Shown: positions 6,458-41,190 of the stretch, in pieces
How positions within the stretch are numbered: position 1 is the stretch's first letter
Layout: each line of letters starts with the position of its first letter
DNA from: a virus
Reading direction: 5' to 3' (one strand)
Length of the DNA stretch: 41,190 nt
Virus record (IMG/VR): IMGVR_UViG_3300045988_109834
Location: 1 to 41,190 of that record
Notes under the pieces: generated by a model
Told to the model about the DNA's origin: nothing
The model's database searches: none
The model's input: only the letters and a program-made list of their open reading frames with translations
Position numbers and translations under genes: made by a program

Positions 6458-6519
6458 ACCAGGGTGCATGGGTGTCATAGCTCATGTGCTCTTTTGTTTT
6501 AAAACTGAAGGAGGCAGAC

Positions 6520-9500: not shown

Positions 9501-12063
9501 CAACAATAAGACCACGAACTTGTCTCTGAATGGAGCTACACCGGATAAACCGGTACAGGTATCATTCTTGCATCAGGATGATTCAGGACTTGACTGGGAA
9601 ATAGCATACAGGGCATACAAGTTTGTAAAGCTGACAGGAATCAGTGTCACTACACTTCCGAATAAGACCAGATACAAAGTTAAAGAATCATTTGATTCCA
9701 CAGGAATGATTGTTACGGCAAACTTTGATGATGGTTCGTCAGAAACAGTGACAAAATATACTCTGACCCAGCCTGACATGACCACATCTGGCACAAAGAC
9801 TATCACCGTGACCTCTGAGAATAAAAATACCTCTTTCGATATTCTGGTTGTTGATGTAACTGAAATTATTGTAACTACGCTACCATCCAAAACAAGATAT
9901 TATGAAGATGATACTTTTTCATCGGACGGCATTGTAGTCTCACAAGTATACAGTGATGGGGCTAAAGAGAACATATCAGGCTTTACATTATCCAAACCTG
10001 ATATGTCTGCAGGCGGCGAGAAGACAGTAACCGTAACTTACAGTAAGTTTACGACTACATTTACGATCACGGTAATTGGTATATCCGGGATAGAAGTCTC
10101 CAAAATGCCGACAAAGACAGAATACTATTTAGGTGACAGCCTTGACGCGTCTGGCCTTGTAGTGGTATCCAGATATACAGATAACACCACGAAGAAACTG
10201 GAAAATTATAGTATATCCAAGCTTGACAGCTCTTCAGTTGGTGAGAAAACAATTACAGTAACTTATAAAACGCATACAGTGTCTTTTAAGGTAAACGTAT
10301 ACAAGGCAAGTGGCATCAGAATCTCCCATTTTCCCGCTAAGACGTTCTATAAGATCGGGGAGTCTCTGGATCTGTCGGGAATGTCTGTAAATCTGATCAG
10401 AAATGATGGTTCGGAAAAAGCGATCACAGATTATAGCGTATCCGGATTCGACAGCTCAAAAGTCGGAACCGAGACCATAACTGTATCTTGTAACATGATG
10501 GTTAATGGTACGAACACCTTTATAGGTTCCGACAGCTTTCAAATTAAAGTAACAAACGATGGTAAAAACCCATTTGACAGCAGCACAGGCAGAGGCGATA
10601 CAGGAGAAACTGAGGAAAATACAGAGCCAGTGTACGTAACAGTCCATTGGATAGATGGGGAGTTCGAGGATCTGACCCATGAAAATGGTGGTATCAAGGC
10701 AAATACGTTTGTTCTTCAGGAGTCTATCTGTTCTGAGCAGTACTTTATCTTTGGTGGCTGCATCTCCAACCAAGTGTCATTTGAAACAGGACACAAACAG
10801 TTCTGGGGGACAGATGAAGACTCATACCCGTCCGGCAGAATTGAGGTGTATCTGGAATGCAATAAAACACAGATCAAGGTATTCACAGGCAGGATTGCAA
10901 GTGCAGAGAGGACTTCTATTTATTCGACAAGGAAGATTGTAGCCTACGACTATCTGTATGATCTCAGAAACACAGATATTGCAAGATGGTACAAGAGCCA
11001 GATTGCCGATAAGAAGAAAAAACTTACACAGAAACAGTTCCGCGATATGTTGTTTAAATTCTTAGGCATTGAACAAATATCTACAAAGCTGCACTGGGAT
11101 GATGCTTATGTGCCATATACAAACAATGCGAATGAAATAAATGCGGTTAATGTTATAAAAGACCTGTGCCTTCAGAACGACCGCTTTGGATGGATGAATA
11201 GGGACGGCAAGTTTGAATACCTAAAACTTCGCCAAAACAGTCAGGAAACAGGCGAAACTACTTCAGGAAAGAAGATTTATAAATATTATGATAATGCAGA
11301 GGTCCATCTTGATACGTTCAAAAGCTTTTGGGCGAAAGAGGGAAGAATCTGGTTTCCGCATACGATTCTCACAGATCCAGATCCTAATAGAGCGTTTGGA
11401 TTTACGCAGGGCGAACCAACTGCACAGGAAGCGTATGAAAACAATGTCTTCTATAACCGTAACAGCTTTTTTGTGGGTAATGAGGACTGGATGGATTATG
11501 TATGGAACGCGGACGAATATGGTGGAATCAGCAGAGAAAAGCCGATTATCAACATCTGTTATGGTACTTTTGTAAATCAGGACTTGAGAAAATATTATCG
11601 AGCACAAGCCTACACAGTGGAGGTTATCGGAAATCCTCTTAACACTGTTGGGCAGACCGTAGAGCTGCGCGACACGAAGCAGATGGAAGATGGCACAGAA
11701 TTAGAGTGGTATGTACATTCTTATGTCATGAGTAGGACTTTGAAGCTTGGAAACAGCCAGTTGATTGATACTTACAGTGCAAATAATGCACCTTTTAACA
11801 GTAACAGCCGACAGCTTGGAAAAGATACACCTGAGATATCCGCGACCGTAAACCGCACCCGATCAGAAATGCCAGTGGTAAGCTATGGATTCTCGGATGG
11901 TACGAGCGATTTCACCCCGGCTGCTGTTTCTGCTTCTGGAAACACTACAAAAAAGACAACATTACGTTGTATGAAGCGCATCAAAAAAGAAGATTATGAT
12001 AAGCTTCCTGCAGCAATTCGTACCAGGAATGACACTATTTTCATGACATACAAGGAGAGTTAA
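6520..12063 (+). CDS. Giant tail/baseplate protein with Ig-like repeats, a BspA-type leucine-rich-repeat segment and a C-terminal Tal-like tail domain
   Basis: 1847 aa from the ATG at 6520 (GAAGGAGG SD). Ig-like units of the type KIEILTLPTENTFYLGSKLNLDGLTV recur at least 8 times. The LRR segment reads ITSVCGFDYCSNLTSIHLPESLSKVGYDAFYRCSNLTEVTLPENV. The gene lies after Dit. Confidence 0.8.
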   Translation: MADTYKLSSLMGTTSGMTLVTSTIMKSGKTQVLDSYYMYSKVPYGRWYYSQAQQSFDNEITKVSVKYDGNILFTFRNGSLGEYDAFYVIGLTATEKIYKQSGTLDTGEKFDKICVYGTTINLNLASFQVNAIYEMFLISGGKKPQIIFNFIKAPKAYLSRYEYPFTRSSSDKNMTTKLPVKAAPSKIYLTYAGAADKWKVTTDLFSTVTLDNLLGTNWFLCGSYDYSVTVKDSSLFDFFKINNQALSQIVGYGKGRVILQSSGNIICVWGTTNNGTYSSYYAEYMRNVPELTLADGSKFFKMRGRMRVNSGSKTPLIYEMYLLNNQKILIYIAGIPDDDTKATGENYVNLFGVNTSLGEVTAGEKIWLYLDDAGTSYAMKTGNDSEVSKIEILTLPTENTFYLGSKLNLDGLTVRATFADGTTFDILKWNEINVAYTNELGNQAVTVMFRGKTATFQTECLEDKVASIDFTISQDHYMIGESLGYIRVTATRLSGKTESVSTGDYTISGYDPNTQGTQTITVAYEGLTATKEILVDSPETAVLTVVNDSSEPFLINFDTFESMNVVATLTYSDGQTANILPSYSGYDNEAAGEKIISVSYRGLSATYTVQVVEEITRQVSDNITMTLNGLTGKAVVSGSGEIPSDAGMFSNSHESDWHGYGYKTAVKTIEIADGITSVCGFDYCSNLTSIHLPESLSKVGYDAFYRCSNLTEVTLPENVATVNSNAFNSCTNTVLTIKNAECQIYDDNYTLQVAKIKGHIDSTAQSYAEKYAIEFKSLETVTKIEVTKKPKKVYHTGETLSKNDIEVTATFDTGDSRTINSYELEYDFSSTGEKTVKAIYGDFSDSFTVNIVAYNFQELINITEGMQVIRNTKNDDEIDTVDGVDWFKFNNVTADKLYINGNNGIGFGVSSEQLKICRRDGAIWNIYRLETVLDDGTKLLKIRVEGYTHYGASGTHESQIKYELFLFGNGDMYLNVIQSPASTSTYAGTSSLICNNKTTNLSLNGATPDKPVQVSFLHQDDSGLDWEIAYRAYKFVKLTGISVTTLPNKTRYKVKESFDSTGMIVTANFDDGSSETVTKYTLTQPDMTTSGTKTITVTSENKNTSFDILVVDVTEIIVTTLPSKTRYYEDDTFSSDGIVVSQVYSDGAKENISGFTLSKPDMSAGGEKTVTVTYSKFTTTFTITVIGISGIEVSKMPTKTEYYLGDSLDASGLVVVSRYTDNTTKKLENYSISKLDSSSVGEKTITVTYKTHTVSFKVNVYKASGIRISHFPAKTFYKIGESLDLSGMSVNLIRNDGSEKAITDYSVSGFDSSKVGTETITVSCNMMVNGTNTFIGSDSFQIKVTNDGKNPFDSSTGRGDTGETEENTEPVYVTVHWIDGEFEDLTHENGGIKANTFVLQESICSEQYFIFGGCISNQVSFETGHKQFWGTDEDSYPSGRIEVYLECNKTQIKVFTGRIASAERTSIYSTRKIVAYDYLYDLRNTDIARWYKSQIADKKKKLTQKQFRDMLFKFLGIEQISTKLHWDDAYVPYTNNANEINAVNVIKDLCLQNDRFGWMNRDGKFEYLKLRQNSQETGETTSGKKIYKYYDNAEVHLDTFKSFWAKEGRIWFPHTILTDPDPNRAFGFTQGEPTAQEAYENNVFYNRNSFFVGNEDWMDYVWNADEYGGISREKPIINICYGTFVNQDLRKYYRAQAYTVEVIGNPLNTVGQTVELRDTKQMEDGTELEWYVHSYVMSRTLKLGNSQLIDTYSANNAPFNSNSRQLGKDTPEISATVNRTRSEMPVVSYGFSDGTSDFTPAAVSASGNTTKKTTLRCMKRIKKEDYDKLPAAIRTRNDTIFMTYKES
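9631..10530 (+). repeat. Four in-frame tandem 225-nt (75-aa) Ig-like domain repeats inside the giant tail gene
   Basis: Units start at 9631, 9856, 10081 and 10306 (LTGISVTTLPNKTRY / VTEIIVTTLPSKTRY / ISGIEVSKMPTKTEY / ASGIRISHFPAKTFY). Confidence 0.85.
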
Positions 12064-12768
12064 ATGGCAATAGAATATAAAGCTTTTTCCGGTGGAAGAG
12101 AAATAGATGGTTTTTATTCTGGTGGAAAAGAGATACAGGAAATATGGGGCGGTGACACACTTTTGTGGAGAAAGAAAGAGGATGTAGTTGAAGAAGATCC
12201 ATGGTGGTTTGACTATGATCTGTATGCACGGTTTAAAAACCCTGCACCGTACAAGAGAGCAGAAGTTTGCTTCTCAGTACAAGCTAAATATGGAGTTCAA
12301 TATGTCAATTTAGCATATGGATTTTGTGTGCGGGTGGTAAATGGAATATATATGGTTACAGCGGCGGCTGTGGACAATTCCAAGATGGAAGGGAGATATT
12401 ACAATGGTGATACATCAATGGTTCCAACATGGAGACTTACAACGGATACTGGCGATACGGAATTTGCGTATTCTGATTCTGCAAATTGGGATGACACCTT
12501 AAAAAAATACAGCCTTTATAATACAAATCCGGAAAACGTACCGTTTTACTCATGGGGCGGAGCATTTGAAGAGAAACCGTTTTGGTTTAAGGATAGTGAC
12601 AAACAGGCAGGGGTGCTTGATGTAACTTCTCCTAAAATAGCGGGCAGTGATGAACCAGAAGGTAAATATTATTATTATCCATCCAGACTTTTCAGCAGCG
12701 TGGGTGCTATGAAAAAATGGTTACTTGACATGTATAATAATCCGGATAAATGGTGGACAGATAAATAG
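12064..12768 (+). CDS. Tail-associated hypothetical protein
   Basis: 234-aa ORF. Its start abuts the stop of the giant tail gene (TAAATG) and has an AAGGAG SD. Confidence 0.6.
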   Translation: MAIEYKAFSGGREIDGFYSGGKEIQEIWGGDTLLWRKKEDVVEEDPWWFDYDLYARFKNPAPYKRAEVCFSVQAKYGVQYVNLAYGFCVRVVNGIYMVTAAAVDNSKMEGRYYNGDTSMVPTWRLTTDTGDTEFAYSDSANWDDTLKKYSLYNTNPENVPFYSWGGAFEEKPFWFKDSDKQAGVLDVTSPKIAGSDEPEGKYYYYPSRLFSSVGAMKKWLLDMYNNPDKWWTDK

Positions 12769-13140: not shown

Positions 13141-13917
13141 TTGAGAGCAGATGAGGTATATGCAATTCTTAAAGGGAAACTTATTAAACTTACAGAAGAC
13201 ATAAAATCAATGGGTGACTGGGAACCCATACAGCACAAGGGAACCGTCCAGACTGCAGATGATCTTCCGGCTGATGCAAAAGAAGGCTGGATGTATAATA
13301 TTGCCACAGACTCTATCTATGGAGCAGCTGGCATGAATGTAGTAAAGACTGCCGATGGATGGGATCCAATGGGACCGATCATTAACATGGCTCCGTATTT
13401 AATGAAGAAAGAAGCGGAAGAACTCTACCAACCGAAGGGAAATTACCCGACAAAAGAAGAGGTTAAAGAAGGATATCAGCCAAAAGGCAATTACCTTACA
13501 AACATTCCACAGGCAGCAGGAAATGTTCTTGGCGGTATCAAAGCTGAGCCAAAAACAGAAAAAGAGGTGGTTCCGGCAAAGATCGATCCTGACACCGGAA
13601 AGATGTACGTCCCAGAACTTCCTGGCTCAGAAGACCTGTCAAAAGAAGATACAACGCAGCAGATTCTCGAAAAATTACAAGAAGTGATCCCTCTTATCAA
13701 TCAGATTGCACAGAACGGAACCGCAGGGTCTGTAAATGGCTTTTCTTTTGTCCATGGCGATGATGGAAGTGTAATGATAACCTATACACCGGATGGAGCA
13801 TCGGAAGCAGAAGTTGCTGTATTCCCTCGGGAAACAACACAGAAGAAGATCTCTAAGGCGACAAAAGAGATTGCGGACAGTTTAAAGATCATAGCAGGAA
13901 AGGAAGATAAAGCATGA
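13141..13917 (+). CDS. Tail fibre-like protein
   Basis: 258-aa ORF with a TTG start 10 nt after GAGGAG. It contains an internal YQPKGNY(P/L)T duplication and is ATGA-coupled to the DGR target gene. Confidence 0.55.
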   Translation: MRADEVYAILKGKLIKLTEDIKSMGDWEPIQHKGTVQTADDLPADAKEGWMYNIATDSIYGAAGMNVVKTADGWDPMGPIINMAPYLMKKEAEELYQPKGNYPTKEEVKEGYQPKGNYLTNIPQAAGNVLGGIKAEPKTEKEVVPAKIDPDTGKMYVPELPGSEDLSKEDTTQQILEKLQEVIPLINQIAQNGTAGSVNGFSFVHGDDGSVMITYTPDGASEAEVAVFPRETTQKKISKATKEIADSLKIIAGKEDKA

Positions 13918-15134
13918 GTTTAGATATCATGAAAGAAAGCACACAGCAGGAGATCCTCAGCAATATGCAGCTGATATCTGCATTAACAGCCTCAATCGCA
14001 GGCGCGACTCCTGGAAGTGTGACAGTTGAAAGATGGAGCGACGTAGGAGATATCATTGTAACTGGTCTTGGAAAGAAGATATTTGCAATCGGAGATAAGT
14101 TTACAGATACATGGAAAGATACAGCTGATAACAGATCATATGAATTTCCGTGGAGATGCAACTGTTTCAGAAACGTAGAACTGGAAGACGGCAGTACAGT
14201 TCCTGGAATGTTATTACAGATGGCATATGCAACCCCATTCGCTGTGCAGTTCTCAAACGCAAGAGCATTCTTGCGTTGTCCGAATGGTTTAGCGGCTGGT
14301 ACCTACAATGTCACATTTGGAGATACCTGGGGAAGCAAAGACGCAAAAGCAAACACCACATGGCAGTTTACCCTTACAAAAGCAGTCCCGACAGGCGGAC
14401 GTTTGGCTGGATTCATCCAGATGCCGGACGTGGCAGCAACAAGCTGGAAAGTTACAGCTTACGCCGCAGATGGAATCACAAAGCTTGAAACAGTTCCCGT
14501 AACAAGCGGATCAGAAGGGACCTCACTTGGAACAATGAATCTTTCTTCCAGAAACGGAGATTTGAACTCCATGCAGGAAACAGGATATGGATGGAACAGA
14601 TGGAAGACATCTGCATACCGACAGTACCTGAACAGTGACAAGCCAAAAGGACAGTGGTGGACACCGCAGGACGAATGGGACGTAGCACCAGATCAGTTGG
14701 CTACAAAGGACGGTTTCCTGCGGGGTATGCCGAAAGAGCTTCTTGACCAGATCCAGCCAGTAAAAGTGATCACATATACGAATACGGTAAATGATGGCGG
14801 AAATGCTGATGTGACTTATGACAAAGTATTCCTCCCGGCACTTGGTGAAATGTATTATGAACCTCAGATTGATGGAGAGGGAGAACCGCATGACTACTGG
14901 AAAGAACGCAGCGGATCAGCAACAAAACTGAAACAGTACACAGCATATCCGAACATGATCACATATGCAGTTGAGAACCATACATCAGCTCAGATTGTGC
15001 GCTTGCGCTCGGCGTTTCGTGGCGTTGCGCTTTACGCCTGGGTTGTCAACTCAGATGGCGGCGCCGGCTACTACTACGCGTTCAGCGCGTATCGTTCCTC
15101 CCCGCTTGTCGCAATCTGCAGAAAATCAGCATAA
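13914..15134 (+). CDS. DGR target protein: tail-fibre/receptor-binding protein with a C-terminal variable region (C-type-lectin-fold-like)
   Basis: 406-aa ORF whose last 48 codons contain the VR. C-terminus: QIVRLRSAFRGVALYAWVVNSDGGAGYYYAFSAYRSSPLV. Confidence 0.88.
   Translation: MSLDIMKESTQQEILSNMQLISALTASIAGATPGSVTVERWSDVGDIIVTGLGKKIFAIGDKFTDTWKDTADNRSYEFPWRCNCFRNVELEDGSTVPGMLLQMAYATPFAVQFSNARAFLRCPNGLAAGTYNVTFGDTWGSKDAKANTTWQFTLTKAVPTGGRLAGFIQMPDVAATSWKVTAYAADGITKLETVPVTSGSEGTSLGTMNLSSRNGDLNSMQETGYGWNRWKTSAYRQYLNSDKPKGQWWTPQDEWDVAPDQLATKDGFLRGMPKELLDQIQPVKVITYTNTVNDGGNADVTYDKVFLPALGEMYYEPQIDGEGEPHDYWKERSGSATKLKQYTAYPNMITYAVENHTSAQIVRLRSAFRGVALYAWVVNSDGGAGYYYAFSAYRSSPLVAICRKSA
14987..15110 (+). 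repeat. DGR variable repeat (VR)
   Basis: 124 bp aligning gap-free to 15647-15770 (offset 660). There are 19 mismatches, all opposite TR adenines. Confidence 0.93.
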
Positions 15135-15159
15135 TCCCCGTACCCACGGATACGGGGAT
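15134..15159 (+). promoter_or_regulatory. Hairpin downstream of VR (candidate DGR target-recognition cruciform)
   Basis: ATCCCCGTA (15134-15142), 8-nt loop, TACGGGGAT (15151-15159). It begins at the last base of the target stop codon, 24 nt after the VR end. Confidence 0.55.
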
Positions 15160-15173
15160 AGAAAAGAGGAAAC

Positions 15174-15626
15174 ATGTCAGTAAATAAAAGTGATAGGAAT
15201 GTAGCGGACACTCCACAGAACAGACATCTGGATGCAGCATGGAAAGCCAGAGGGCTTTCACTGCATACAATGAAAATCTGCAAAAACAAGAATGTCTTTC
15301 TTCCGGAATATCAGTCCGCACTCACAGACGATATCATCAGACTCTCAAAGGACATCTATTTAAAAGTCCGCAGGTCAAACAACATCAGAATGGATGTCAA
15401 AGACCCGGCAAGAAAAGCGAAGAACTGGGAAGTAAGAAGTAATCTGCAGGTATCAGCAATACTGGATTGCAACGATATGCTCTATCTGATAGAACTTGCC
15501 AGAGCATTGTTTCATCTGAAAGGGAAGAAAGCGGAATACTGGTCTGATCTTACATTGGAAACGAGAGAATACATCAAAAGATGGCATGAATCCGATGTAG
15601 ACAGATATAAAACATACACAAGATAA
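15174..15626 (+). CDS. avd: Accessory variability determinant (Avd)-like protein
   Basis: 150-aa basic, predicted helical ORF with an AAGAGGA SD, located between VR and TR as in BPP-1. The call is mainly positional. Confidence 0.6.
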   Translation: MSVNKSDRNVADTPQNRHLDAAWKARGLSLHTMKICKNKNVFLPEYQSALTDDIIRLSKDIYLKVRRSNNIRMDVKDPARKAKNWEVRSNLQVSAILDCNDMLYLIELARALFHLKGKKAEYWSDLTLETREYIKRWHESDVDRYKTYTR

Positions 15627-15646
15627 AATCATGGGATGTAGGCTAT

Positions 15647-15770
15647 AGCTCAGAATGTGCGCTTGCGCTCGGCGAATCGTGGCAATGCGAATAACGCCTG
15701 GAATGTCAACTCAGATGGCAACGCCAACAACAACAACGCGTTCAACGCGTATCGTTCCTCCCCGATTGTC
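15647..15770 (+). repeat. DGR template repeat (TR)
   Basis: Non-coding copy of the VR with 32 adenines and 13 in-frame AAY codons. Translated in the VR frame it reads QNVRLRSANRGNANNAWNVNSDGNANNNNAFNAYRSSPIV. Confidence 0.93.
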
Positions 15771-15926
15771 TTACATAGGGCATCATAGCTGTTACATAGT
15801 AACGGTTGTCCCGAAGGCATTAGACAAGGAGCCGAAATCCCATCCGAAAGGATAAACAATACCCGTTACGATGCACGTGACTCCACACGGAGCCTGCCAG
15901 TGCTATCACGTGGCGGGACAAGATAA
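15647..15926 (+). ncRNA. Putative DGR template RNA (TR plus 156-nt spacer upstream of the RT)
   Basis: By analogy with the BPP-1 TR-Sp RNA. The spacer contains CACGTGA...TCACGTG pairing. Transcript ends are unknown. Confidence 0.45.
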
Positions 15927-17078
15927 ATGAAAGAATATATAACAGGGTTTGACCAGCTTTATGGATCAGCGTGGAAATGCCAGGCAAATGTAACCTGGAA
16001 GCCTTCGGTAAAGTCATTCATGTTAAATGCCGAAGAGAATATCCATAGAATGCACAAACAGACTCAAAGCGGTACCTGGAAACATGGAAAGCCAAGAAAG
16101 AAGATCATCACATACCCGAAGAAAAGGGAAGCCCTGAGCATCCCGTACAAGGACAGAGTGTATCAGCGCAGCATTAATGATAACTCCCTGTATCCGCAGA
16201 TGACAAGAAGCTTCATATATGCGAACTGCGCCTGCCAGACAGGAAAAGGTACAGATTTTGCCCGAAAACTGGTTAAAAAGTATATGTGGAATTATTTCTG
16301 CAAATATGGGAACCAGGGATACGTAATGCAGATAGATATTCATGGCTATTATCAAAACATGAAGCATGAGGAAGTAAGTAACTGGTTTGAAGCAAAAGTA
16401 GATCCAGATACTTACGAAATGTCAATGAGCGTACTGGATACACAGTACAGTGGAGACACCGGATATAATCCCGGAAGCCAGATGGTGCAGATTGCGGGCA
16501 TATCCTTATTAGATCCGTTAGATCACCATATCAAAGAACAACTCCATGCGCACTATTACATCCGGTATCAGGATGATTTCTGGATTCTTTGGTATGACTA
16601 CGAAGAATTGAAAAGTTGGTTTGAAATTATAAAGATAAAACTAAAAGAAAAGGGATTCGAAGCAAATGAGAAGAAATCCCGCATAACCCCATTGTCGAAA
16701 GGATTCCGGTTTTTGGGATTTGATTACAGAATGACGGAAACCGGAAAGATAATCATGACTCTGAACTCTCAAAACACAAAACATGAGAGAAAGAAGCTTG
16801 TCCGGATGACTCACAAAGTAGCCAAAGGTGAAATGGATGATTCCACAGTGGATGAAAACTTTAGATGCTGGAAGAATAACGCCAGCAAAGGGAATTCAGA
16901 GAAATTGATAAAACGAACAGAGAGATACTTGGAACGTCTCAGAAAGGAGCATTATGCAGTACCAGAAAAAAACATTAAGCCCACAGGAAGAGGCAGAAAA
17001 CGAGATCCTGAAAGCGGCTGTTGCAAGCCAGCAGGAAGAACTGACAAAAACAAAACTTCTTCTTCAGTATGTAGCTGA
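15927..17078 (+). CDS. DGR reverse transcriptase
   Basis: 383 aa with RT motifs KREALSIPYKDRVYQ, QIDIHGYYQNM, PGSQMVQIAG, YIRYQDD and FRFLGF. No maturase/endonuclease or intron features. Confidence 0.92.
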   Translation: MKEYITGFDQLYGSAWKCQANVTWKPSVKSFMLNAEENIHRMHKQTQSGTWKHGKPRKKIITYPKKREALSIPYKDRVYQRSINDNSLYPQMTRSFIYANCACQTGKGTDFARKLVKKYMWNYFCKYGNQGYVMQIDIHGYYQNMKHEEVSNWFEAKVDPDTYEMSMSVLDTQYSGDTGYNPGSQMVQIAGISLLDPLDHHIKEQLHAHYYIRYQDDFWILWYDYEELKSWFEIIKIKLKEKGFEANEKKSRITPLSKGFRFLGFDYRMTETGKIIMTLNSQNTKHERKKLVRMTHKVAKGEMDDSTVDENFRCWKNNASKGNSEKLIKRTERYLERLRKEHYAVPEKNIKPTGRGRKRDPESGCCKPAGRTDKNKTSSSVCS

Positions 17079-33703: not shown

Positions 33704-34606
33704 TTGGCCAGAGCACCAGATAAAAGAATAGAACAAGCCCGAAAGTTATATCTGCAAGGAAAAAAACTGGTAGAGATTGCAAGCCAGTTAAACCTTCCAG
33801 AAGGCACTGTAAGAAGATGGAAATGTACCCACAAATGGGATAGCGAACGTTCGGATAAAAAAAGCGAACGTTCGGAAAAGAAAAAGACAAAGAAAAAGAA
33901 AGCGGCTGAGAGCGAAGTTGAATCTGTAACTGAGAATTCAGAATTAACTGACAAACAGCGGCTTTTTTGCGTTTACTACATTCGCAGTTTTAATGCTACG
34001 AAAGCATATCAGAAAGCGTACGAGTGCAGCTACGAAATAGCGATGAGAAGCGGCAGCAGGATGTTGAGAAATGTTGAGGTAAAAGAAGAAATCCTCAGAC
34101 TAAAGCAGGAACGCTTAAACCGAGAATTTCTTTCCGAGTCAGATATATTCCAGAAGTACATGGATATAGCCTTCGCAGATATTACTGACTACATGACATT
34201 CGGTACGGAAGAGGTACCGGTTATGGCAATATATGGACCTGTGAAGATAAAGGATCCTGAGACCGGCGAAGAGAAGCAGCTTACAAAAATTGTGAACACA
34301 GTCCGGTTCAAGGATTCTACCGAGGTGGACGGCACTATCCTGTCAGAAGTGAAACAGGGAAAAGATGGAGCCAGTATCAAACTATCAGACCGCATGAAAG
34401 CATTGCAGTGGCTGTCTGATCACATGAATATGGCAACAGAGGAGCAGAAAGCCAAAATAGCTCAGATAAAGGCTCAGACAGAACGCCTGGCAGCAGCACC
34501 GACAGACGGAGAAGAGGATGGAGTTGAGATCATAAACGATGCGGACGAAAAAGCAGGTCAGAATATCAGAGATAGTGATACCGAAGTATCTTCCGGTGTT
34601 CAATAA
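33704..34606 (+). CDS. terS: Terminase small subunit
   Basis: 300 aa with a TTG start 7 nt after GAGGTGG. N-terminal HTH (LVEIASQLNLPEGTVRRW) and a terminase-small core (QRLFCVYYIRSFNATKAYQKAY). Confidence 0.85.
   Translation: MARAPDKRIEQARKLYLQGKKLVEIASQLNLPEGTVRRWKCTHKWDSERSDKKSERSEKKKTKKKKAAESEVESVTENSELTDKQRLFCVYYIRSFNATKAYQKAYECSYEIAMRSGSRMLRNVEVKEEILRLKQERLNREFLSESDIFQKYMDIAFADITDYMTFGTEEVPVMAIYGPVKIKDPETGEEKQLTKIVNTVRFKDSTEVDGTILSEVKQGKDGASIKLSDRMKALQWLSDHMNMATEEQKAKIAQIKAQTERLAAAPTDGEEDGVEIINDADEKAGQNIRDSDTEVSSGVQ
33842..33876 (+). repeat. Two 14-bp direct repeats AGCGAACGTTCGGA, 21 bp apart, each containing the 10-bp palindrome CGAACGTTCG (candidate pac element)
   Basis: Copies at 33842-33855 and 33863-33876, inside the Lys/Ser/Glu-rich linker of terS. 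Confidence 0.4.
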
Positions 34607-35936
34607 TAAATCATATAAACACATCATCCTAACTTCTGGACGTGCCGGCACGAAATCCAGTTTTGCTGCTATACGGACAGACTACCAGATCATAGCAGAC
34701 CCTCATGGATCAGCTGTAGTCTTGCGCAAACACCACAACAAACTTAGAAAGACGGTATACAAAGAAATGCTTCGAGGTATTAACCGCCTTCAGGTACCAA
34801 AGAACCGGTTTTATATAACAAAAAGTCCGATGGAAATCACATATAAGAAGTACAATACAACCATTTACTTCTCTGGATCCGACGGCATAGACGACACCAA
34901 AGGTATCATTGACGAAGATAAACCAATTAAATTAGTTATCCTGGACGAGCTGACAGAATTCTTTGACGACGGAGAAGGTGAGGATGAGCTTGCGAACATA
35001 GAAGCAACTTTCGTCAGGGGAAATAAAGCAGGATTCCAGATGATTTATCTGTACAACCCGCCGAAGAATCCAAATGCACCAGTAAATACATGGTGCAAGA
35101 AGATGGAGAAACGCCCTGACTGTATTCACATTCATACGGATTACAGAGACGTACCGGTAGACTGGTTAGGACAGGATCTGATTGATTCTGCAGAAGCCAT
35201 GAAAGCCGTAGATCCAAAGATGTACCGCTGGACATGGCTGGGGGAACCGGTCGGAGTAGATGAACTGATCTATTATATGGTTTCAGACCGAAACCGAAAG
35301 AAACCGGAAGAAGGAAGAGCATACGAAAGAGCATATATCGGCGGAGACTATGGACAGCAGAATGCAACAACCTATCAGGCGTTTGGACTTGACACATACA
35401 GGCGAAAGTTTCCTGGGCTTGGAGAGTATTACCACAGTGGCCGGGAATCCGGAACACAGAGAAGTCCGTCAGAATACGCGCAGGATTTAGTAGACTTTAT
35501 GAATGATCTTCATGAAGAATATGGAATCAGAGCTTTTTATGTGTGCCTGGACCCGTCGGCAAAAGGCTTACAGGAAGAAATCCGAAGAGCTACCAGAACC
35601 GGACTGGATTACAGTGTTCTGATCAGAGATGCAGAGAACGATGTAGCACTTGGAATCAGCCGTGTGCAGAAAGCATTTATATTCGATATCCTCAGTATTT
35701 CTCCAAAACAGGAGAATCTGATCAGAGAGCTGGGGACATATGAGTACGATAAAAAATCAATTGAAAAAGGCAAGGAAGTACCAGTCAAAGAAAACGATCA
35801 TGGATGTGACGCATTACGCTATGCAGTAATGACTGCATGGAGATATTTAAAGACGTGGCTCCCTGCCGAGATAGAAGAAAAAGAATACATCGTTGATATA
35901 GCGAGAAAGGAGGTAGAGGAAGATGGATATATTTAG
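34539..35936 (+). CDS. terL: Terminase large subunit (PBSX-type)
   Basis: 465 aa with Walker A LTSGRAGTKSS, Walker B LVILDE and a C-terminal nuclease region (DHGCDALRY). It overlaps terS by 68 nt. Confidence 0.9.
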   Translation: MRTKKQVRISEIVIPKYLPVFNNKSYKHIILTSGRAGTKSSFAAIRTDYQIIADPHGSAVVLRKHHNKLRKTVYKEMLRGINRLQVPKNRFYITKSPMEITYKKYNTTIYFSGSDGIDDTKGIIDEDKPIKLVILDELTEFFDDGEGEDELANIEATFVRGNKAGFQMIYLYNPPKNPNAPVNTWCKKMEKRPDCIHIHTDYRDVPVDWLGQDLIDSAEAMKAVDPKMYRWTWLGEPVGVDELIYYMVSDRNRKKPEEGRAYERAYIGGDYGQQNATTYQAFGLDTYRRKFPGLGEYYHSGRESGTQRSPSEYAQDLVDFMNDLHEEYGIRAFYVCLDPSAKGLQEEIRRATRTGLDYSVLIRDAENDVALGISRVQKAFIFDILSISPKQENLIRELGTYEYDKKSIEKGKEVPVKENDHGCDALRYAVMTAWRYLKTWLPAEIEEKEYIVDIARKEVEEDGYI

Positions 35937-37362
35937 TTACCTGCAAAGAAAAGGAATTGATACGGTAGACAGATCTTTTTACCGGATGACAGCCATCTGG
36001 GAGAGCTGGTATAAGGGAAAAGTGAGAAACTTTACCAGATACAGAGTATATTCTGGACAGGGCACATATTCAATAAAGCACAGAAAAAGTTTGGGAATGG
36101 CAAAGAAACTGGCAGAGGATATCGCAGACCTGCTTTTGAATGAACGTGTACAGATTACACTTTCTGATGAAACCACGGGAGACTTCGTGTCTGAAGTTCT
36201 GAGACAGAACAGATTTCTGGTCCTTGGGAATGATTACCAGGAAAGGAAAGCATATTCCGGAACAGTTGCATATATCCCATACCTGCAGGATGCAGAGGCG
36301 GATGAGGAAGGCAGGATCATTCCTGGCACCGGAAAGATAGGAATTGATTATGTGAGCGCAAAAGATATATACCCGATCAGTTGGAACAATGGAAAGATTA
36401 CAGAGTGTGCATTTACATTTCAAAAGACCGTTGCAAGAAGAAAATACATACAGGTTCAGATTCACCAGATGGAAGAAACAGAACAGGGTTTGCAGTACGT
36501 CATCGAAAATAACGTCCTGGAATGTCAGGCCGGCAGCAGGGAAGGGAAAGAACTCAAGGAAGAAGAATGGAAACAGTTGAAACCTTTTAGAAACCTTTCT
36601 GCGAGAGTGGAGACAGGTTCATCGGAACCTCAGTTCACGATAGATCGCTTAAATATCGTAAATAATGCAGACGAAGACGAAAGCAATCCCATGGGAATCG
36701 CAATATACGCGAATTCTATTGATATCCTGAAAAAACTGGACATTGAATATGACTCATATAACAACGAGTTTGACCTTGGAAGAAAGAGAATATTTGTTGC
36801 TCCGGAAATGATAAGGAATATAGATGGAAATCCGGCATTTGACCCGGAAGATACAGTATTTTACCAGCTTCCGGATAATTACGATAAGGACAAAGAAGGA
36901 CTGATAAAAGAGATCAACATGGATCTTAGATCGGAACAGCATTCGAAGGCTATTAATGATGACCTGAATTATCTTTCTTTGAAATGTGGGTTTGGCACAG
37001 AAAGATATAAATTCGACAGCAGCGGCGTAAAGACAGCCACAGAAGTCATATCAGAAAACTCAGATATGTATCGCATGATCAAAAAGCATGAGATCATCCT
37101 GGAAGACGTTCTGAAAGAACTGATACAGATTATTATCCGACTCGGCATTGTACTCGGAAATCCATTAAATCCGGATACTGAGATCACGATTGACTTTGAT
37201 GATTCGATCATTGAGGACAAACAGGCGGAACGCCAGTCTGATCGTCAGGACGTAAGCATGGGCGCAATGCCATTATGGGAATACAGAGCCAAGTATTATG
37301 GGGAGACTGAGGAAAAAGCAAAAGCTTCAGTCGAACAGCCAGAGGATACGGTGATTGAATGA
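35923..37362 (+). CDS. Portal protein (SPP1 gp6-like)
   Basis: 479-aa ORF directly after terL, with the size and position typical of a portal protein. Confidence 0.8.
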   Translation: MDIFSYLQRKGIDTVDRSFYRMTAIWESWYKGKVRNFTRYRVYSGQGTYSIKHRKSLGMAKKLAEDIADLLLNERVQITLSDETTGDFVSEVLRQNRFLVLGNDYQERKAYSGTVAYIPYLQDAEADEEGRIIPGTGKIGIDYVSAKDIYPISWNNGKITECAFTFQKTVARRKYIQVQIHQMEETEQGLQYVIENNVLECQAGSREGKELKEEEWKQLKPFRNLSARVETGSSEPQFTIDRLNIVNNADEDESNPMGIAIYANSIDILKKLDIEYDSYNNEFDLGRKRIFVAPEMIRNIDGNPAFDPEDTVFYQLPDNYDKDKEGLIKEINMDLRSEQHSKAINDDLNYLSLKCGFGTERYKFDSSGVKTATEVISENSDMYRMIKKHEIILEDVLKELIQIIIRLGIVLGNPLNPDTEITIDFDDSIIEDKQAERQSDRQDVSMGAMPLWEYRAKYYGETEEKAKASVEQPEDTVIE

Positions 37363-38906
37363 CACAGGGAGAAATTGAGAAGCTGACAGCAAAGACCGAA
37401 AATATCTTTTCGGAACTGGAGATCCGGATCATGTCTGATATCGTTCGCCGTATCAAAGAAAATGGAGTTTCTACAGCATCTGCAGACTGGCAGTTGACAA
37501 GACTACAGCAACTGGGAATGTCACAGGAACAGATTAAAAAGTACATTCAGTCAGCTCTTGAAGCTTCTGAAAAGGAAATGGAGAAGATCTTTTCTGATAA
37601 GGCATACGAAGAATACTATGGACATGAAAGATTCTATAAATTCGCAGATATGCAGCAGATACCTTTTGAAGAAAACATTGTTCTCCAGAGACTCATAGAA
37701 GCAACAAAAGAACAGATACAGGGTGAATACAAGAATTTGACTGCTTCCATGGGATTTGCAATCATAGATCCTGTGACTGGGAAAATCAAATCAGCTCCGC
37801 TTATGGATTTTTACAGATCCACAATGGATAATGCGGTTTTAGATATTCAATCAGGAGCTTTTGATTACAACACTGTTTTAGGAAGAACAATCAAACAAAT
37901 GACCGATTCGGGCATTCGATACATAGATTATGATTCCGGACGGAGAGACAGAGTAAATGTAGCTGCCAGGAGAGCAGTTCTCACAGGATTCAGACAGGTG
38001 CAGGGGAAGATAAACGAGCAGGTGGCAGCAGAACTTCACACAGACATGTATGAGGTAAGTTATCATGTCGGTGCAAGACCTTCACATCAGCCGTGGCAGG
38101 GAAGGGTATACAGCATGGAACAGCTTCATTCTGTGTGCGGTCTGGGAGAAGTAACCGGTCTGAAAGGGGCGAATTGCTATCACGATTACAAACCATTTCC
38201 ACCCGGATCCGTAAGAACTTATACAGATGAACAGCTAAAACGGATGAACCAGGAAGAAAATACCCCGAAGACCTATAACGGTAAAGAATACACAACCTAT
38301 GAAGCACTTCAACAGCAGAGGAAGATGGAACGGGGAATGCGTGCCCAGAGACAACGAATAAAACTTTTGCAGGCAGGCGAGGCGGATGAACAGGATATTA
38401 TTCTTGCAAAAGCCAGATATCAGGGGCAAATGCAGGCTTATAAAGACTTTTCAAAGAAGATGAAACTGCCAGAACAGAAGGCACGGATTACTCAGGACGG
38501 GCTGAGAGGACGGTTTATGCCAACGAAGGCGGAACAGAAAATTCTTGAAGAATCTGCAATAAATGATAAAATAAAGACAGAGTTATCAGAAGCGAAGATA
38601 AAAGGCGTACCGAAGATAAACCCAGAGAAAGTGGATGTTTCAGAATTTACATTTGATACAGCTCACATTAATACAGAAAGAGAACACGGAGTTACCAGAG
38701 CCGAGGCAGAGAAGTTCATTAAAGAAGCAGACATTTCTCTGACACGTTGGAATGGCAGGTTTATAAACTATTATGGACCTAATGGTGCAACATACGTGGA
38801 TATGGAAAATAATAATATCCGAACAGCTTTTAAGAAAGAACAATTTGACGAACCGACATTGAAGATTAGGGAGGTGGCAGAAAAATATGGAACCAATAAA
38901 GGTTAA
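37359..38906 (+). CDS. Minor head/morphogenesis protein (SPP1 gp7 / Mu F-like) with an extra C-terminal domain
   Basis: 515 aa. The signature ARPSHQPWQGRVY is typical of the gp7/MuF family. It is ATGA-coupled to the portal gene. Confidence 0.8.
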   Translation: MTQGEIEKLTAKTENIFSELEIRIMSDIVRRIKENGVSTASADWQLTRLQQLGMSQEQIKKYIQSALEASEKEMEKIFSDKAYEEYYGHERFYKFADMQQIPFEENIVLQRLIEATKEQIQGEYKNLTASMGFAIIDPVTGKIKSAPLMDFYRSTMDNAVLDIQSGAFDYNTVLGRTIKQMTDSGIRYIDYDSGRRDRVNVAARRAVLTGFRQVQGKINEQVAAELHTDMYEVSYHVGARPSHQPWQGRVYSMEQLHSVCGLGEVTGLKGANCYHDYKPFPPGSVRTYTDEQLKRMNQEENTPKTYNGKEYTTYEALQQQRKMERGMRAQRQRIKLLQAGEADEQDIILAKARYQGQMQAYKDFSKKMKLPEQKARITQDGLRGRFMPTKAEQKILEESAINDKIKTELSEAKIKGVPKINPEKVDVSEFTFDTAHINTEREHGVTRAEAEKFIKEADISLTRWNGRFINYYGPNGATYVDMENNNIRTAFKKEQFDEPTLKIREVAEKYGTNKG

Positions 38907-39066
38907 TTGCCCATTAATGGGAATGGAAATCGAAGATGGGATATGTTTTGATATTCACATGAATGTCGAAGGTCTGGCACCTGATTGGACAATTCCGGAC
39001 AAGGTGTTAAAAATTCCAGACTACAAAAAGATTTGCTTACAGTGCAAAAATCACAAAGAGGATTGA
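38887..39066 (+). CDS. Small Cys-containing protein (59 aa)
   Basis: MEPIKVNCPLMGMEIEDGIC...CLQCKNHKED, with a strong GGGAGGTGG SD 9 nt upstream. Below the ORF-track cut-off. Confidence 0.5.
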   Translation: MEPIKVNCPLMGMEIEDGICFDIHMNVEGLAPDWTIPDKVLKIPDYKKICLQCKNHKED

Positions 39067-39114
39067 ATGCCATCAGTCAGAAACGGCCGGTGGTATTTTT
39101 ATACCCATTTTTAG

Positions 39115-39133
39115 AAAATTGCGCCGGCGCAAT
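39115..39133. promoter_or_regulatory. GC-core palindrome, copy 3 (AAAATTGCGCCGGCGCAAT)
   Basis: Identical 19-mer to 17578-17596. It is preceded by a weak hairpin plus T-run and followed by the Prp SD. Confidence 0.6.
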
Positions 39134-39145
39134 AAGGAGGATAAC

Positions 39146-39430
39146 ATGATACAGGTAAAAATCTCTTCCACGGGAATACAGATGAATGGTCATGCGTGCA
39201 GATCAGTAAATGGACAGGATATCGTATGTTCTGCTATTTCGGCCCTGACCTGTAATCTGATTAATTCCTTGGAAGAACTGACAGATAACCGGATCAGAGC
39301 AGAGACAGCTTCCGGAAAAACGGTTATAGAATGGGAAGACCTGGACGACAGGGGAAAACTTTTAGTAGATTCCTGGTTCATTGGACTTACATCTGTTAAT
39401 CAGGGATACAATTGCATAGAGTTTATTTAG
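39146..39430 (+). CDS. prp: Prp-like cysteine protease (ribosomal-processing protease family, DUF464)
   Basis: 94 aa from the ATG at 39146 (AAGGAGG SD). MIQVKI...GHACRS...DIVCSAISAL carries the His/Cys dyad pattern of Prp. Confidence 0.75.
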   Translation: MIQVKISSTGIQMNGHACRSVNGQDIVCSAISALTCNLINSLEELTDNRIRAETASGKTVIEWEDLDDRGKLLVDSWFIGLTSVNQGYNCIEFI

Positions 39431-39506
39431 CCGGCCCGAAAAGGCTGGTTTTATTATGTCCAAAACATGAAGACAGATAAAAGCTCTGGGAATATGGAGG
39501 AAAACA

Positions 39507-40094
39507 ATGAAAAATAAATTGATGAACTTACACATTTTCGATGAAGGAGGAACTGGCGGAGACGGCGGAACTGGGAATCCGAACGGAAATGGTGGGACTG
39601 GCAGCAGCGGCCAGAACGGAAACACTGGGTACACATTTGAACAGGCGGAAGAGATTGCAAATAGCAGAGCGCAGAAGGCGGAAAGAGCAGCCTTGGCAAG
39701 CTTTTACAGACAGCAGGGCTTAAGTGAGGAACAGATCACTACTGCAATTGCGGACTTTAAAGCAAAACAGAAAGCAAATCAGCCAGATGTCGATGCAATC
39801 ACAAAAGAAAGAGACACATATAAGCAGGAACTGCAGCAGTATAAAAATGAAAAAATCCTGTCAGAAAAAGGCGTAAGGGCAGAAGATATGGATTATGTTC
39901 TTTTTAAAGTCAATAAGCTTGTAGATGACAAGACTGATTTTATAAAGGCGGCAGATAAATTTCTGAAAGAAAATCCACGTTACGGAAAAGGAACATACAG
40001 AGTTTCCACATCCACGGGAGCTGATAATCAGAACACCGGAGGAAATGTCAATGCGTCAATCAATGACCGGATCCGTGCAGCAATGAGAAGATAA
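39507..40094 (+). CDS. Capsid scaffolding protein
   Basis: 195-aa helical, charged ORF immediately upstream of the capsid gene. It has a Gly-rich segment after the N-terminal leader MKNKLMNLHIFD. Confidence 0.75.
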   Translation: MKNKLMNLHIFDEGGTGGDGGTGNPNGNGGTGSSGQNGNTGYTFEQAEEIANSRAQKAERAALASFYRQQGLSEEQITTAIADFKAKQKANQPDVDAITKERDTYKQELQQYKNEKILSEKGVRAEDMDYVLFKVNKLVDDKTDFIKAADKFLKENPRYGKGTYRVSTSTGADNQNTGGNVNASINDRIRAAMRR

Positions 40095-40104
40095 GGAGAG
40101 AAAC

Positions 40105-41085
40105 ATGAACAGAAACAGAATGAATTTAAGACTTTTTGATAACGACGTAAACATTATTGACAGAAGCGGAGCTGAGTCTCTGATTCCGGTACAGGAGTCA
40201 AATGAGATCATCCAGGGAGTAGTTACCCAGTCAGCAGTGCTCCAGAGAGGGCGAAGAATGGCAAATATGACATCAAGACAGTACAAAATGCCGGTTCTTG
40301 ATATGCTACCAATCGCATACTTCGTAAATGGCGATACAGGCCAGAAACAGACTACAAAGCAGGCATGGAGCAATAAGTTTATCACTGCAGAAGAAATCGC
40401 AGTTATCGTGCCGGTACCGGAAGCAGTGCTGGACGATTCAGAATATGATATCTGGGCCGAAGTAAGACCGAGAATCATTGAAGCGTTTGGAAAAGTGATT
40501 GATGGAGCTATCCTGTTTGGCACAGATAAACCATCTTCCTGGAGAGATGACGTTGTAACTACTGCGAATGCGGCGAAGTCCGTAGTAACAATCGGAAGTG
40601 ATGATAACCTCTATGACAAGATCATGGGAGTAGACGGCGTGATTGCAAAAGTAGAGAACAGCGGATATTTCGTAAATGGACATATGGCAGACATCTCTAT
40701 GAGAGCAAAACTGAGAGAATTAAAGGATACAACCGGAAATCCTCTGTTCAAGAGCGATATGCAGACAGGAACCAATTATTCCCTGGATGGAAGTCCAATG
40801 AATTTCCCAAATAATGGCGCTTTCGATAAGAGCAAAGCACTGATGATCTCCGGAGACTTCTCCCAGCTGGTATATTCTATCCGCCAGGACATCACATTCA
40901 AACTCTTTACAGAGGGCGTTATACAGAATAAAGATGGTTCTATCGCATACAACCTGATGCAGAACGACATGGTAGCTCTGAGAGCAGTTATGCGTCTTGG
41001 CTGGGAGATTCCGAACCCAATCAATAGTCTCCAGAAAGATAAAACAAAGAGATGCCCGTTCTCTGTATTAAAAGCAAATGAATGA
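40105..41085 (+). CDS. Major capsid protein (HK97-fold family)
   Basis: 326 aa in the position after the scaffold gene, with an AAGGAG SD and the N-terminal leader MNRNRMNLRLFD. Confidence 0.85.
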   Translation: MNRNRMNLRLFDNDVNIIDRSGAESLIPVQESNEIIQGVVTQSAVLQRGRRMANMTSRQYKMPVLDMLPIAYFVNGDTGQKQTTKQAWSNKFITAEEIAVIVPVPEAVLDDSEYDIWAEVRPRIIEAFGKVIDGAILFGTDKPSSWRDDVVTTANAAKSVVTIGSDDNLYDKIMGVDGVIAKVENSGYFVNGHMADISMRAKLRELKDTTGNPLFKSDMQTGTNYSLDGSPMNFPNNGAFDKSKALMISGDFSQLVYSIRQDITFKLFTEGVIQNKDGSIAYNLMQNDMVALRAVMRLGWEIPNPINSLQKDKTKRCPFSVLKANE

Positions 41086-41190
41086 TATAAGGATGTGACA
41101 TAAATGTATGCAGACCGTAGCTATTACGAAACAGGGTATCTGTTAGGAAGATCTCCGGTAATTCCGGAAGGGATATACCCTTACTGGGAG
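41072..41190. repeat. Terminal direct repeat, copy B (identical to 1-119)
   Basis: Exact 119-bp duplicate of the window start. Confidence 0.95.
41104..41190 (+). CDS. Partial duplicate of the connector gene at 33-431 (window edge)
   Basis: The same sequence as 33-119, truncated by the window end. Confidence 0.9.
   Translation, partial: MYADRSYYETGYLLGRSPVIPEGIYPYWE

Follow-up and report, generated by a model that had tools for sequence, protein, structure and literature searches.

Near the end of the plus-strand head-morphogenesis operon of the IMG/VR virus record IMGVR_UViG_3300045988_109834 (positions 1 to 41,190; this whole stretch of 41,190 nucleotides is referred to as the window), a small gene encoding a Prp-family protease stands directly before the genes for the head scaffolding protein and the major capsid protein. 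The scaffold gene (39507-40094, + strand) encodes 195 amino acids and matches PHROG 2303 at 1.5e-34; the capsid gene (40105-41085, + strand) encodes an HK97-fold major capsid protein of 326 amino acids (PF05065 at 8e-32, TIGR01554). The protease open reading frame (ORF; Pfam PF04327, PHROG 4478) runs on the same strand from an ATG at 39146 to a stop codon ending at 39430 and encodes 94 amino acids. ATG 39146 is preferred as the start to TTG 39119, which was given by the mechanical ORF call, because a Shine-Dalgarno sequence, AAGGAGG (39134-39140, + strand), lies 5 nt before it; the Prp homologues all start with MI.V. A reading of the letters and translated ORFs alone, hereafter the sequence-only reading, had noticed the Prp (DUF464) pattern in this ORF and proposed a profile search against Peptidase_Prp. 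The protein (MIQVKISSTGIQMNGHACRSVNGQDIVCSAISAL...) indeed contains the pattern GHA...DIVCSAISAL, and PF04327 matched it over profile positions 1-86 of 90 with 64.2 bits (gathering cutoff 27, E 1.3e-17). PHROG 4478, labelled 'peptidase', matched at 1.6e-26. The product is a Prp-family cysteine protease of the MEROPS C108 type, with predicted activity.

The active-site region aligns without gaps to that of Staphylococcus aureus Prp (SaPrp; 4PEO/7KLD), reading GHACRSVNGQDIVCSAISAL in the window and GHADHGEYGHDIVCAGASAV in SaPrp. In this alignment G15, H16, A17, G23, D25, C28 and S32 correspond to SaPrp G21, H22, A23, G29, D31, C34 and S38, respectively. SaPrp is inactivated by mutation of G21, H22, D31, C34 or S38, and its Ala23 contributes to the oxyanion hole (PMC9405229). 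His16 and Cys28 form the predicted catalytic dyad of the phage enzyme. Across 43 homologues with 64-91% identity, six of the aligned residues (G15, H16, A17, D25, C28 and S32) do not vary, and G23 is present in at least 90% of the sequences. The loop from Gly to Asp spans 11 residues, like that of the Prps that cleave ribosomal protein L27; the Thermotoga maritima type of Prp has a short loop, unlike the L27-cleaving enzymes (PMC9405229). An AlphaFold2 model of the phage protein reached a predicted local distance difference test score (pLDDT) of 94.7. Its best Foldseek match in the PDB was substrate-bound SaPrp (7KLD_B, E 1.3e-8, TMq 0.84), and all 14 fold matches below E 1e-3 were Prp structures.

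The phage protein and bacterial Prp (YsxB) thus have in common the Pfam family, the fold (TM 0.84), the dyad with its supporting residues, the loop length and an acidic isoelectric point (4.6 for phage Prp and 4.45 for SaPrp; PMC9405229). The phage protein is about 12 residues shorter at its ends, is approximately 25-30% identical to the solved bacterial Prps, and has capsid proteins rather than L27 as its presumed substrates. It was not recognized as a ribosomal Prp orthologue by any of 12 NCBIfam Prp equivalog models (NF0111xx; ysxB), the best of which scored 44.2 bits against a cutoff of 166. Its gene does not lie between rplU (L21) and rpmA (L27) but between the minor capsid and scaffold genes.

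The scaffold protein begins MKNKLMNLHIFDEGG and the capsid protein begins MNRNRMNLRLFDNDV. Both are predicted to carry an 11-codon leader, MKNKLMNLHIF in the scaffold protein (39507-39539, + strand) and MNRNRMNLRLF in the capsid protein (40105-40137, + strand). The predicted cut in each lies between Phe11 (codons at 39537-39539 and 40135-40137, respectively) and Asp12, leaving DEGG as the first residues in the scaffold protein and DNDV in the capsid protein. That the two genes after the protease start with near-identical leaders had been claimed from the letters alone, and the claim stood up to a search of the whole window: the pattern NL.[ILMVF]F[DEA] has exactly two matches in the six-frame translation of the 41,190 bases, both at residues 7-12 of the adjacent scaffold and capsid proteins. 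In 100 shuffles of the window the same pattern matched on average 0.42 times anywhere. Chance resemblance of the two leaders was rejected on this comparison of two matches at the same offset with 0.42 in the shuffles. Among the clade's nucleotide versions, 46 for the scaffold and 53 for the capsid protein, P4 Leu and P1 Phe never vary and P6 Met almost never does (P1 being the last residue before the cut and P1' the first after it); the residues ahead of the motif vary freely. Leu is encoded by TTA, CTG, CTT, CTC or TTG and Phe by TTT or TTC among these versions. The leader codons vary synonymously, and selection is therefore exerted on the peptide.

Both window leaders share the residues P6 Met, P5 Asn, P4 Leu and P1 Phe, and their motif aligns residue by residue to the NLQFF/A of L27 (the slash marks the cut; L27 leaders are from Table 2 of PMC9405229). 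The L27 leaders of Lachnospiraceae, MLNMNLQFF/AHKK in Eubacterium rectale and MMKMNLQFF/AHKK in Ruminococcus torques, are cleaved after Phe, and the long L27 leaders in the same review have A or S at P1' in all cases and Q at P3 in all but one (PMC9405229). These published Lachnospiraceae sequences stand in for the L27 leader of the actual host. The window motif had been described as a variant of NLQFFA, in agreement with our comparison: P3, P2 and P1' all differ from L27 and from the leaders of Staphylococcus phage 80alpha, P3 being His (scaffold) or Arg (capsid) rather than Gln, P2 being Ile or Leu, and P1' being Asp rather than Ala. The sequence-only reading had placed the cut after FD, one residue too far according to the alignment with L27 and with relatives of the Ala type. 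Asp is assigned to P1' because a relative whose Prp is 68% identical reads NLQLF/AGSANSIDRSG where the window reads NLRLF/DNDVNIIDRSG. The predicted cut is almost certainly this F/D bond (P1 Phe11, P1' Asp12) in both proteins.

Leaders of this kind have a precedent in 80alpha, in which the host Prp processes the scaffold (gp46) and capsid (gp47) proteins by cleaving their L27-like leaders after Phe (Kizziah et al. 2017, PMC5744158), as the sequence-only reading had correctly stated. An uncleavable or pre-cleaved capsid protein is tolerated by 80alpha, and the scaffold protein needs an intact N-terminus for assembly (PMC5744158). The two phages share the gene order of SPP1-type portal, gp7-like minor capsid protein, scaffold and HK97 capsid protein (gp42-gp44-gp46-gp47 in 80alpha). 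The window capsid protein is 28% identical to gp47 over 272 aa (E 1e-22, BLASTP), and tblastn matches to it included 115 Staphylococcus phage records. The 80alpha leaders, ..KFNLQFF and ..KLNLQHF, have P5 Asn, P4 Leu and a terminal hydrophobic residue followed by Phe in common with those of the window. In contrast, 80alpha lacks a protease gene and relies on the essential Prp of its host, whereas the window phage encodes its own enzyme. Moreover, 13-14 residues are removed in 80alpha while the window leaders have 11, and 80alpha has P1' Ala and P3 Gln where the window has Asp and His or Arg. Neither window protein has the canonical 80alpha-type site (P1' Ala or Ser, P3 Gln).

Streptococcus phage Cp-1 is a precedent for phages carrying a Prp-type protease for capsid maturation. 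The orf13 protease of Cp-1 was reportedly described by Martin and colleagues in 1998. This small protease belongs to MEROPS clan CR, as does Prp, and shortens the major head protein by 48 residues (PMC12445089). Cp-1 and the window phage therefore both pair a small phage-encoded Prp-related cysteine protease with an N-terminal extension of the major head protein. They differ in that Cp-1 is a phi29-like podophage, its orf13 matches the Pfam Prp family only weakly (18.5 bits, below the cutoff), its cut site has no L27-like motif, and a scaffold leader is not evident. The window joins the two precedents, with a phage-encoded Prp, L27-like leaders on both assembly proteins and a putatively altered site.

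Comparative genomics links the leaders to the protease gene. Scaffold and capsid leaders are both present in every Prp locus of the window's clade with readable downstream genes. Among distinct homologous capsid genes from IMG/VR and GenBank, 74 had both Prp and the leader, 76 had neither and none had the leader without Prp, counts that amount to consistency and not to statistical independence. Ten apparent cases of Prp without a leader consisted of seven that do have leaders (parser failures) and three ambiguous ones. At the scaffold position of loci lacking Prp, the motif was missing in 84 of 85 ORFs. The Prp-less phages with homologous capsid proteins (47-76% identity) include Faecalibacterium phage FP_Lugh, a C. 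difficile phage and about 80 IMG/VR contigs, and the scaffolds of these relatives are leaderless as well. Leaderless capsid proteins start with M-A-V-D-IIDR... (M-x-x-x-IIDR), a start 2-3 residues away from DNDVNIIDR, the predicted mature end, and in an alignment with them the leader is a 12-column N-terminal insertion. These comparisons support inheritance of Prp and the leaders together, as a protease-substrate module. FP_Lugh (NC_047912) has at the Prp position a gene, gp23 (2376-2699, 107 aa), whose label 'dihydrolipoyl dehydrogenase' looks implausible for its size. As a candidate for a mis-annotated Prp, gp23 was rejected, given that it has no GHA...C motif and that the capsid and scaffold proteins of FP_Lugh have no leaders.

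The arrangement is not peculiar to the window phage: IMG/VR contigs that have it number in the hundreds, and a few isolated phages, Brochothrix phage BL3 among them, have it too. Searching IMG/VR with the protein itself and with Prp alignments yielded at least 449 Prp-bearing viral contigs for the window's clade and 586 or more for a second one, with possible overlap between the two match sets. In tblastn over 50,697 GenBank phage records, Prp was found only in Acutalibacter phage Fontainebleau, Dorea phage DO134P1, two Latilactobacillus phages, BL3 and some fecal contigs. The gene is unannotated in DO134P1 (OP172779, ~3998-4288), is a 'hypothetical protein' with an apparently truncated start in Latilactobacillus phage TMW 1.1365 P3 (3441-3755), and is a 'peptidase' in BL3 (gp6, 3444-3749). 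Such labels, where there are any, are all that these other phage Prps carry, and they have no described function.

All GenBank Prp phages that were examined have leaders on both the scaffold and the capsid protein. The leaders read MLKNLKMNLQLF/AEPG (NLQLF/AEPG) and MIKKLRMNLQKF/AAGK (NLQKF/AAGK) in BL3, ..MKLQLF/ADGG and MKKQLVMNLQHF/ADIL in Latilactobacillus, ..MANLQLF/AEGD and ..KLGLQVF/TAPD in DO134P1, and NLQLF/DDGG and NLQLF/DTDA in Fontainebleau. In the second IMG/VR clade (L201-L280) the leader is xLQ(L/V/I)F followed by A or T, with Gln at P3 wherever a leader was found. Thus Latilactobacillus phages TMW 1.1365 P3 and 1.1447 P1, BL3, DO134P1, Fontainebleau and L201-L280 share with the window a Prp gene in the head module and xLxxF leaders on both proteins. 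Most of them have P3 Gln and P1' Ala or Thr, unlike the window, and Fontainebleau alone shares its acidic P1'. In BL3 and Latilactobacillus the Prp gene lies between the portal and minor head protein genes, whereas that of the window lies between the minor capsid and scaffold genes. The Prp-plus-leader module is widespread, mostly with a host-like predicted site.

The departure from the host-like site is a property of the window's clade. P1' is Asp or Glu in 54 of 58 scaffold leaders and in 45 of 53 capsid leaders, an acidic P1' being shared by this clade and Fontainebleau, and Arg occupies P3 of the capsid leader in 41 of 53, a trait of the clade. The structure of SaPrp shows a size limit at P1' and hydrogen bonds of P3 Gln that organise the active-site loop (PMC9405229); the acidic P1' and the altered P3 therefore sit at positions relevant to recognition. 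On the enzyme side, Arg as the fifth residue of the GHAxR loop, Arg19 in the window's GHACR, is over-represented among phages with acidic P1', with exceptions such as GHAECS, GHAGYH and others. This Arg is a weak lead as a correlate of P1' and is not diagnostic.

The homology, fold and comparative genomics together bear out the earlier proposal that the phage carries its own Prp-family protease along with two leader-bearing presumed substrates. Our reading of the locus is that the phage Prp trims both L27-like leaders at F11/D12, a site shifted from that of host L27, and we give it a probability of about 0.7. Family membership, the intact active site, the fold, motif conservation and the co-occurrence of protease and leaders are supported directly; cleavage, its F/D site, the responsible protease, the timing and the specificity shift are what we infer. 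In the proposed mechanism, the scaffold and capsid proteins would be made with an 11-residue leader that mimics the N-terminal extension of Firmicute L27, consisting of a basic stretch followed by M-N-L-x-(I/L)-F. Presumably dimeric, as SaPrp is, the phage Prp would bind the leader and cut after Phe11, and mature proteins starting from Asp12 would be released before or during procapsid assembly. In the window's clade the site would have moved off the host L27 site, with P1' Asp or Glu in place of Ala and P3 His or Arg in place of Gln. Either drift of its sites away from that of L27 or a high demand for processing, or the two combined, may explain why the phage has an enzyme of its own, site drift being the most likely reason.

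A stronger version of the last idea is that the phage Prp and its leaders form a private orthogonal pair, the shifted site being poorly cut by the host Prp and the phage enzyme having co-evolved with it. We regard this version as tentative and rather doubtful. If true, it would insulate capsid maturation from the host's essential L27-processing enzyme, reveal a natural divergence of specificity inside the tiny C108 family, and offer a compact 94-aa enzyme with an 11-aa tag for orthogonal leader removal.

Several points weigh against trimming by the phage enzyme at a shifted site. No experimental record of cleavage was found for the window phage or for a similar phage-encoded Prp, and a Prp of the host's own, almost certainly present, could perform the cleavage instead. 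In 80alpha, cleavage of the capsid and scaffold proteins is dispensable for viability, and only an intact scaffold N-terminus is needed (PMC5744158). The phage Prp, scoring far below the equivalog cutoffs, belongs to a divergent subfamily and is no orthologue of the ribosomal enzyme. No column of the Prp alignment separates phages with acidic P1' from those with Ala at P1'. P1' is also not strictly discriminating, because contig L020 (IMGVR_UViG_3300045988_037312, 4275-5995) mixes Asp in its scaffold leader (NLRLF/DEGT) with Ala in its capsid leader (NLQLF/AGNA); this contig is a useful natural case for asking if a single Prp can handle acidic and Ala P1' alike. Lastly, the co-occurrence of Prp and leaders is weaker evidence than the raw counts imply, because these come from a few large clades and perhaps from one or two evolutionary events.

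Some of these points favour the best surviving alternative, in which both leaders would be cut by the host ribosomal Prp, as they are in 80alpha. The phage copy would then have no distinct specificity and would serve only as a dosage booster or backup, easing the competition between L27 and the tens of thousands of phage subunits, capsid and scaffold, that need processing. The homologous capsid and scaffold proteins of 80alpha are processed by the host Prp (PMC5744158), and BL3, Latilactobacillus and L201-L280 keep host-like xLQxF/A leaders, so that the module can exist without private specificity. The mixed P1' of L020 and the lack of a Prp column that follows the P1' type fit this alternative as well. 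However, no phage in our sample has the leader without Prp, and the acidic P1' and basic P3 depart from near-invariant L27 positions that are structurally constrained in SaPrp. The low identity to solved Prps and the scores below the equivalog cutoffs further point to an old, separately evolving lineage. On balance we consider a mere booster or backup role unlikely.

The dispensability of cleavage in 80alpha has a second implication, that the leader might serve mainly as a Prp-binding tag, with the phage Prp acting as a folding or assembly chaperone for the scaffold and capsid proteins and cleavage being incidental or absent. Assembly of 80alpha requires the N-terminal sequence of the scaffold protein and not cleavage of either protein (PMC5744158), and a chaperone role towards L27 has been suggested for Prp (PMC9405229). 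This seems improbable for the window phage, in which the equivalents of the catalytic His, Cys, Asp and Ser are invariant throughout the clade, as would not be expected of a pure binder, and P1 Phe is invariant too. Least probable is action of the phage Prp on a host protein (L27, FlhB or another protein with an L27-like N-terminus), the phage leaders being decoys or unrelated: L27-like motifs are indeed found in further bacterial proteins, FlhB among them (Table 3 of PMC9405229), but the gene lies within the head-morphogenesis operon directly before the two motif-bearing genes in all loci that were examined, and the leaders co-occur perfectly with it.

Only from 80alpha, via the host enzyme, is Prp processing of a phage's scaffold and capsid proteins known. 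That 80alpha processing by host Prp is said to have been described by Wall and colleagues in 2015. A full-text literature search found no description of a phage-encoded Prp with leader-bearing scaffold and capsid proteins, an earlier mention in Wall 2015 or 2017 being possible, and in a 2025 preprint the discoverers of Prp bring up no phage leaders other than the staphylococcal ones. Current labels of the phage gene as 'peptidase', as 'hypothetical' or, in prophages, as ribosomal Prp all miss its role. The module is unsurprising in principle and is a clean natural system for the function of Prp leaders and for Prp specificity. Many gut Firmicutes phages carry Prp with leader-tagged scaffold and capsid proteins, and their close relatives without both provide a natural gain/loss comparison of the leader's role. 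The acidic-P1' clade offers a concrete and cheap test of Prp specificity determinants. Bacterial Prp is pursued as a narrow-spectrum antibiotic target, and these determinants are therefore relevant beyond phages.

The window is the complete, circularly permuted genome of a temperate siphophage of 41 kb, because its other genes encode head-tail connectors, a tape measure protein, a large tail protein, an integrase and replication functions. The host appears to be one of the gut Clostridia, probably of the Lachnospiraceae. A genome scan found only two prophage relatives, at 63% identity, one of them in a Blautia metagenome-assembled genome, and the closer relatives of the window phage are all human gut metagenome sequences. 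Upstream of the protease gene, the + strand encodes the small terminase (33704-34606), the large terminase (34539-35936), an SPP1-type portal (35923-37362, PF05133), a minor capsid protein 2 resembling SPP1 gp7 (37359-38906, PF06152) and a small four-cysteine ORF of 59 aa (38887-39066, phrog_27009 at 5e-9). Searches with Pfam and PHROGs found no classical prohead protease (S78 HK97 gp4-type, S14 ClpP-type or S21/S80 assemblin-type) in the six ORFs from portal to capsid, the other window ORFs having been scanned in part.

A terminator-like hairpin with an 8-bp stem, a 6-nt loop and a T-rich tail (39429-39456, + strand) overlaps the Prp stop codon. It falls in the 76-nt gap ahead of the scaffold gene, for which the RNA fold was computed, and is the sole such site found in 38500-41190. 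It precedes the scaffold and capsid genes, which are highly expressed, and might uncouple the protease's expression from that of its presumed substrates or dampen it. In the 59-aa ORF, C8, C20, C51 and C54 form a possible zinc-ribbon-like arrangement. This ORF is probably outside the protease module, because a similar cysteine-rich ORF occupies the same position in the Prp-less locus L116. In the close relatives L283-L286, whose Prp is 84% identical to that of the window, its place between the minor capsid gene and Prp is taken by a PF21825 'Sequestin' gene (2470-2967).

In the tail region, a protein of 1859 aa (6484-12063) has a single weak PHROG match at residues 1393-1587, and the downstream ORFs 12064-12768 and 13141-13917 are without a PHROG match. 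A complete diversity-generating retroelement follows at 13914-17078. Its target gene (13914-15134) bears the variable repeat (14987-15110) at its 3' end, a likely Avd ORF of 150 aa lies at 15174-15626, the template repeat lies at 15647-15770, and the reverse transcriptase is encoded at 15927-17078 (phrog_1423 at 1.8e-63). The matched 124-nt repeats are 85% identical, and all mismatches pair an A in the template with a non-A in the variable copy.

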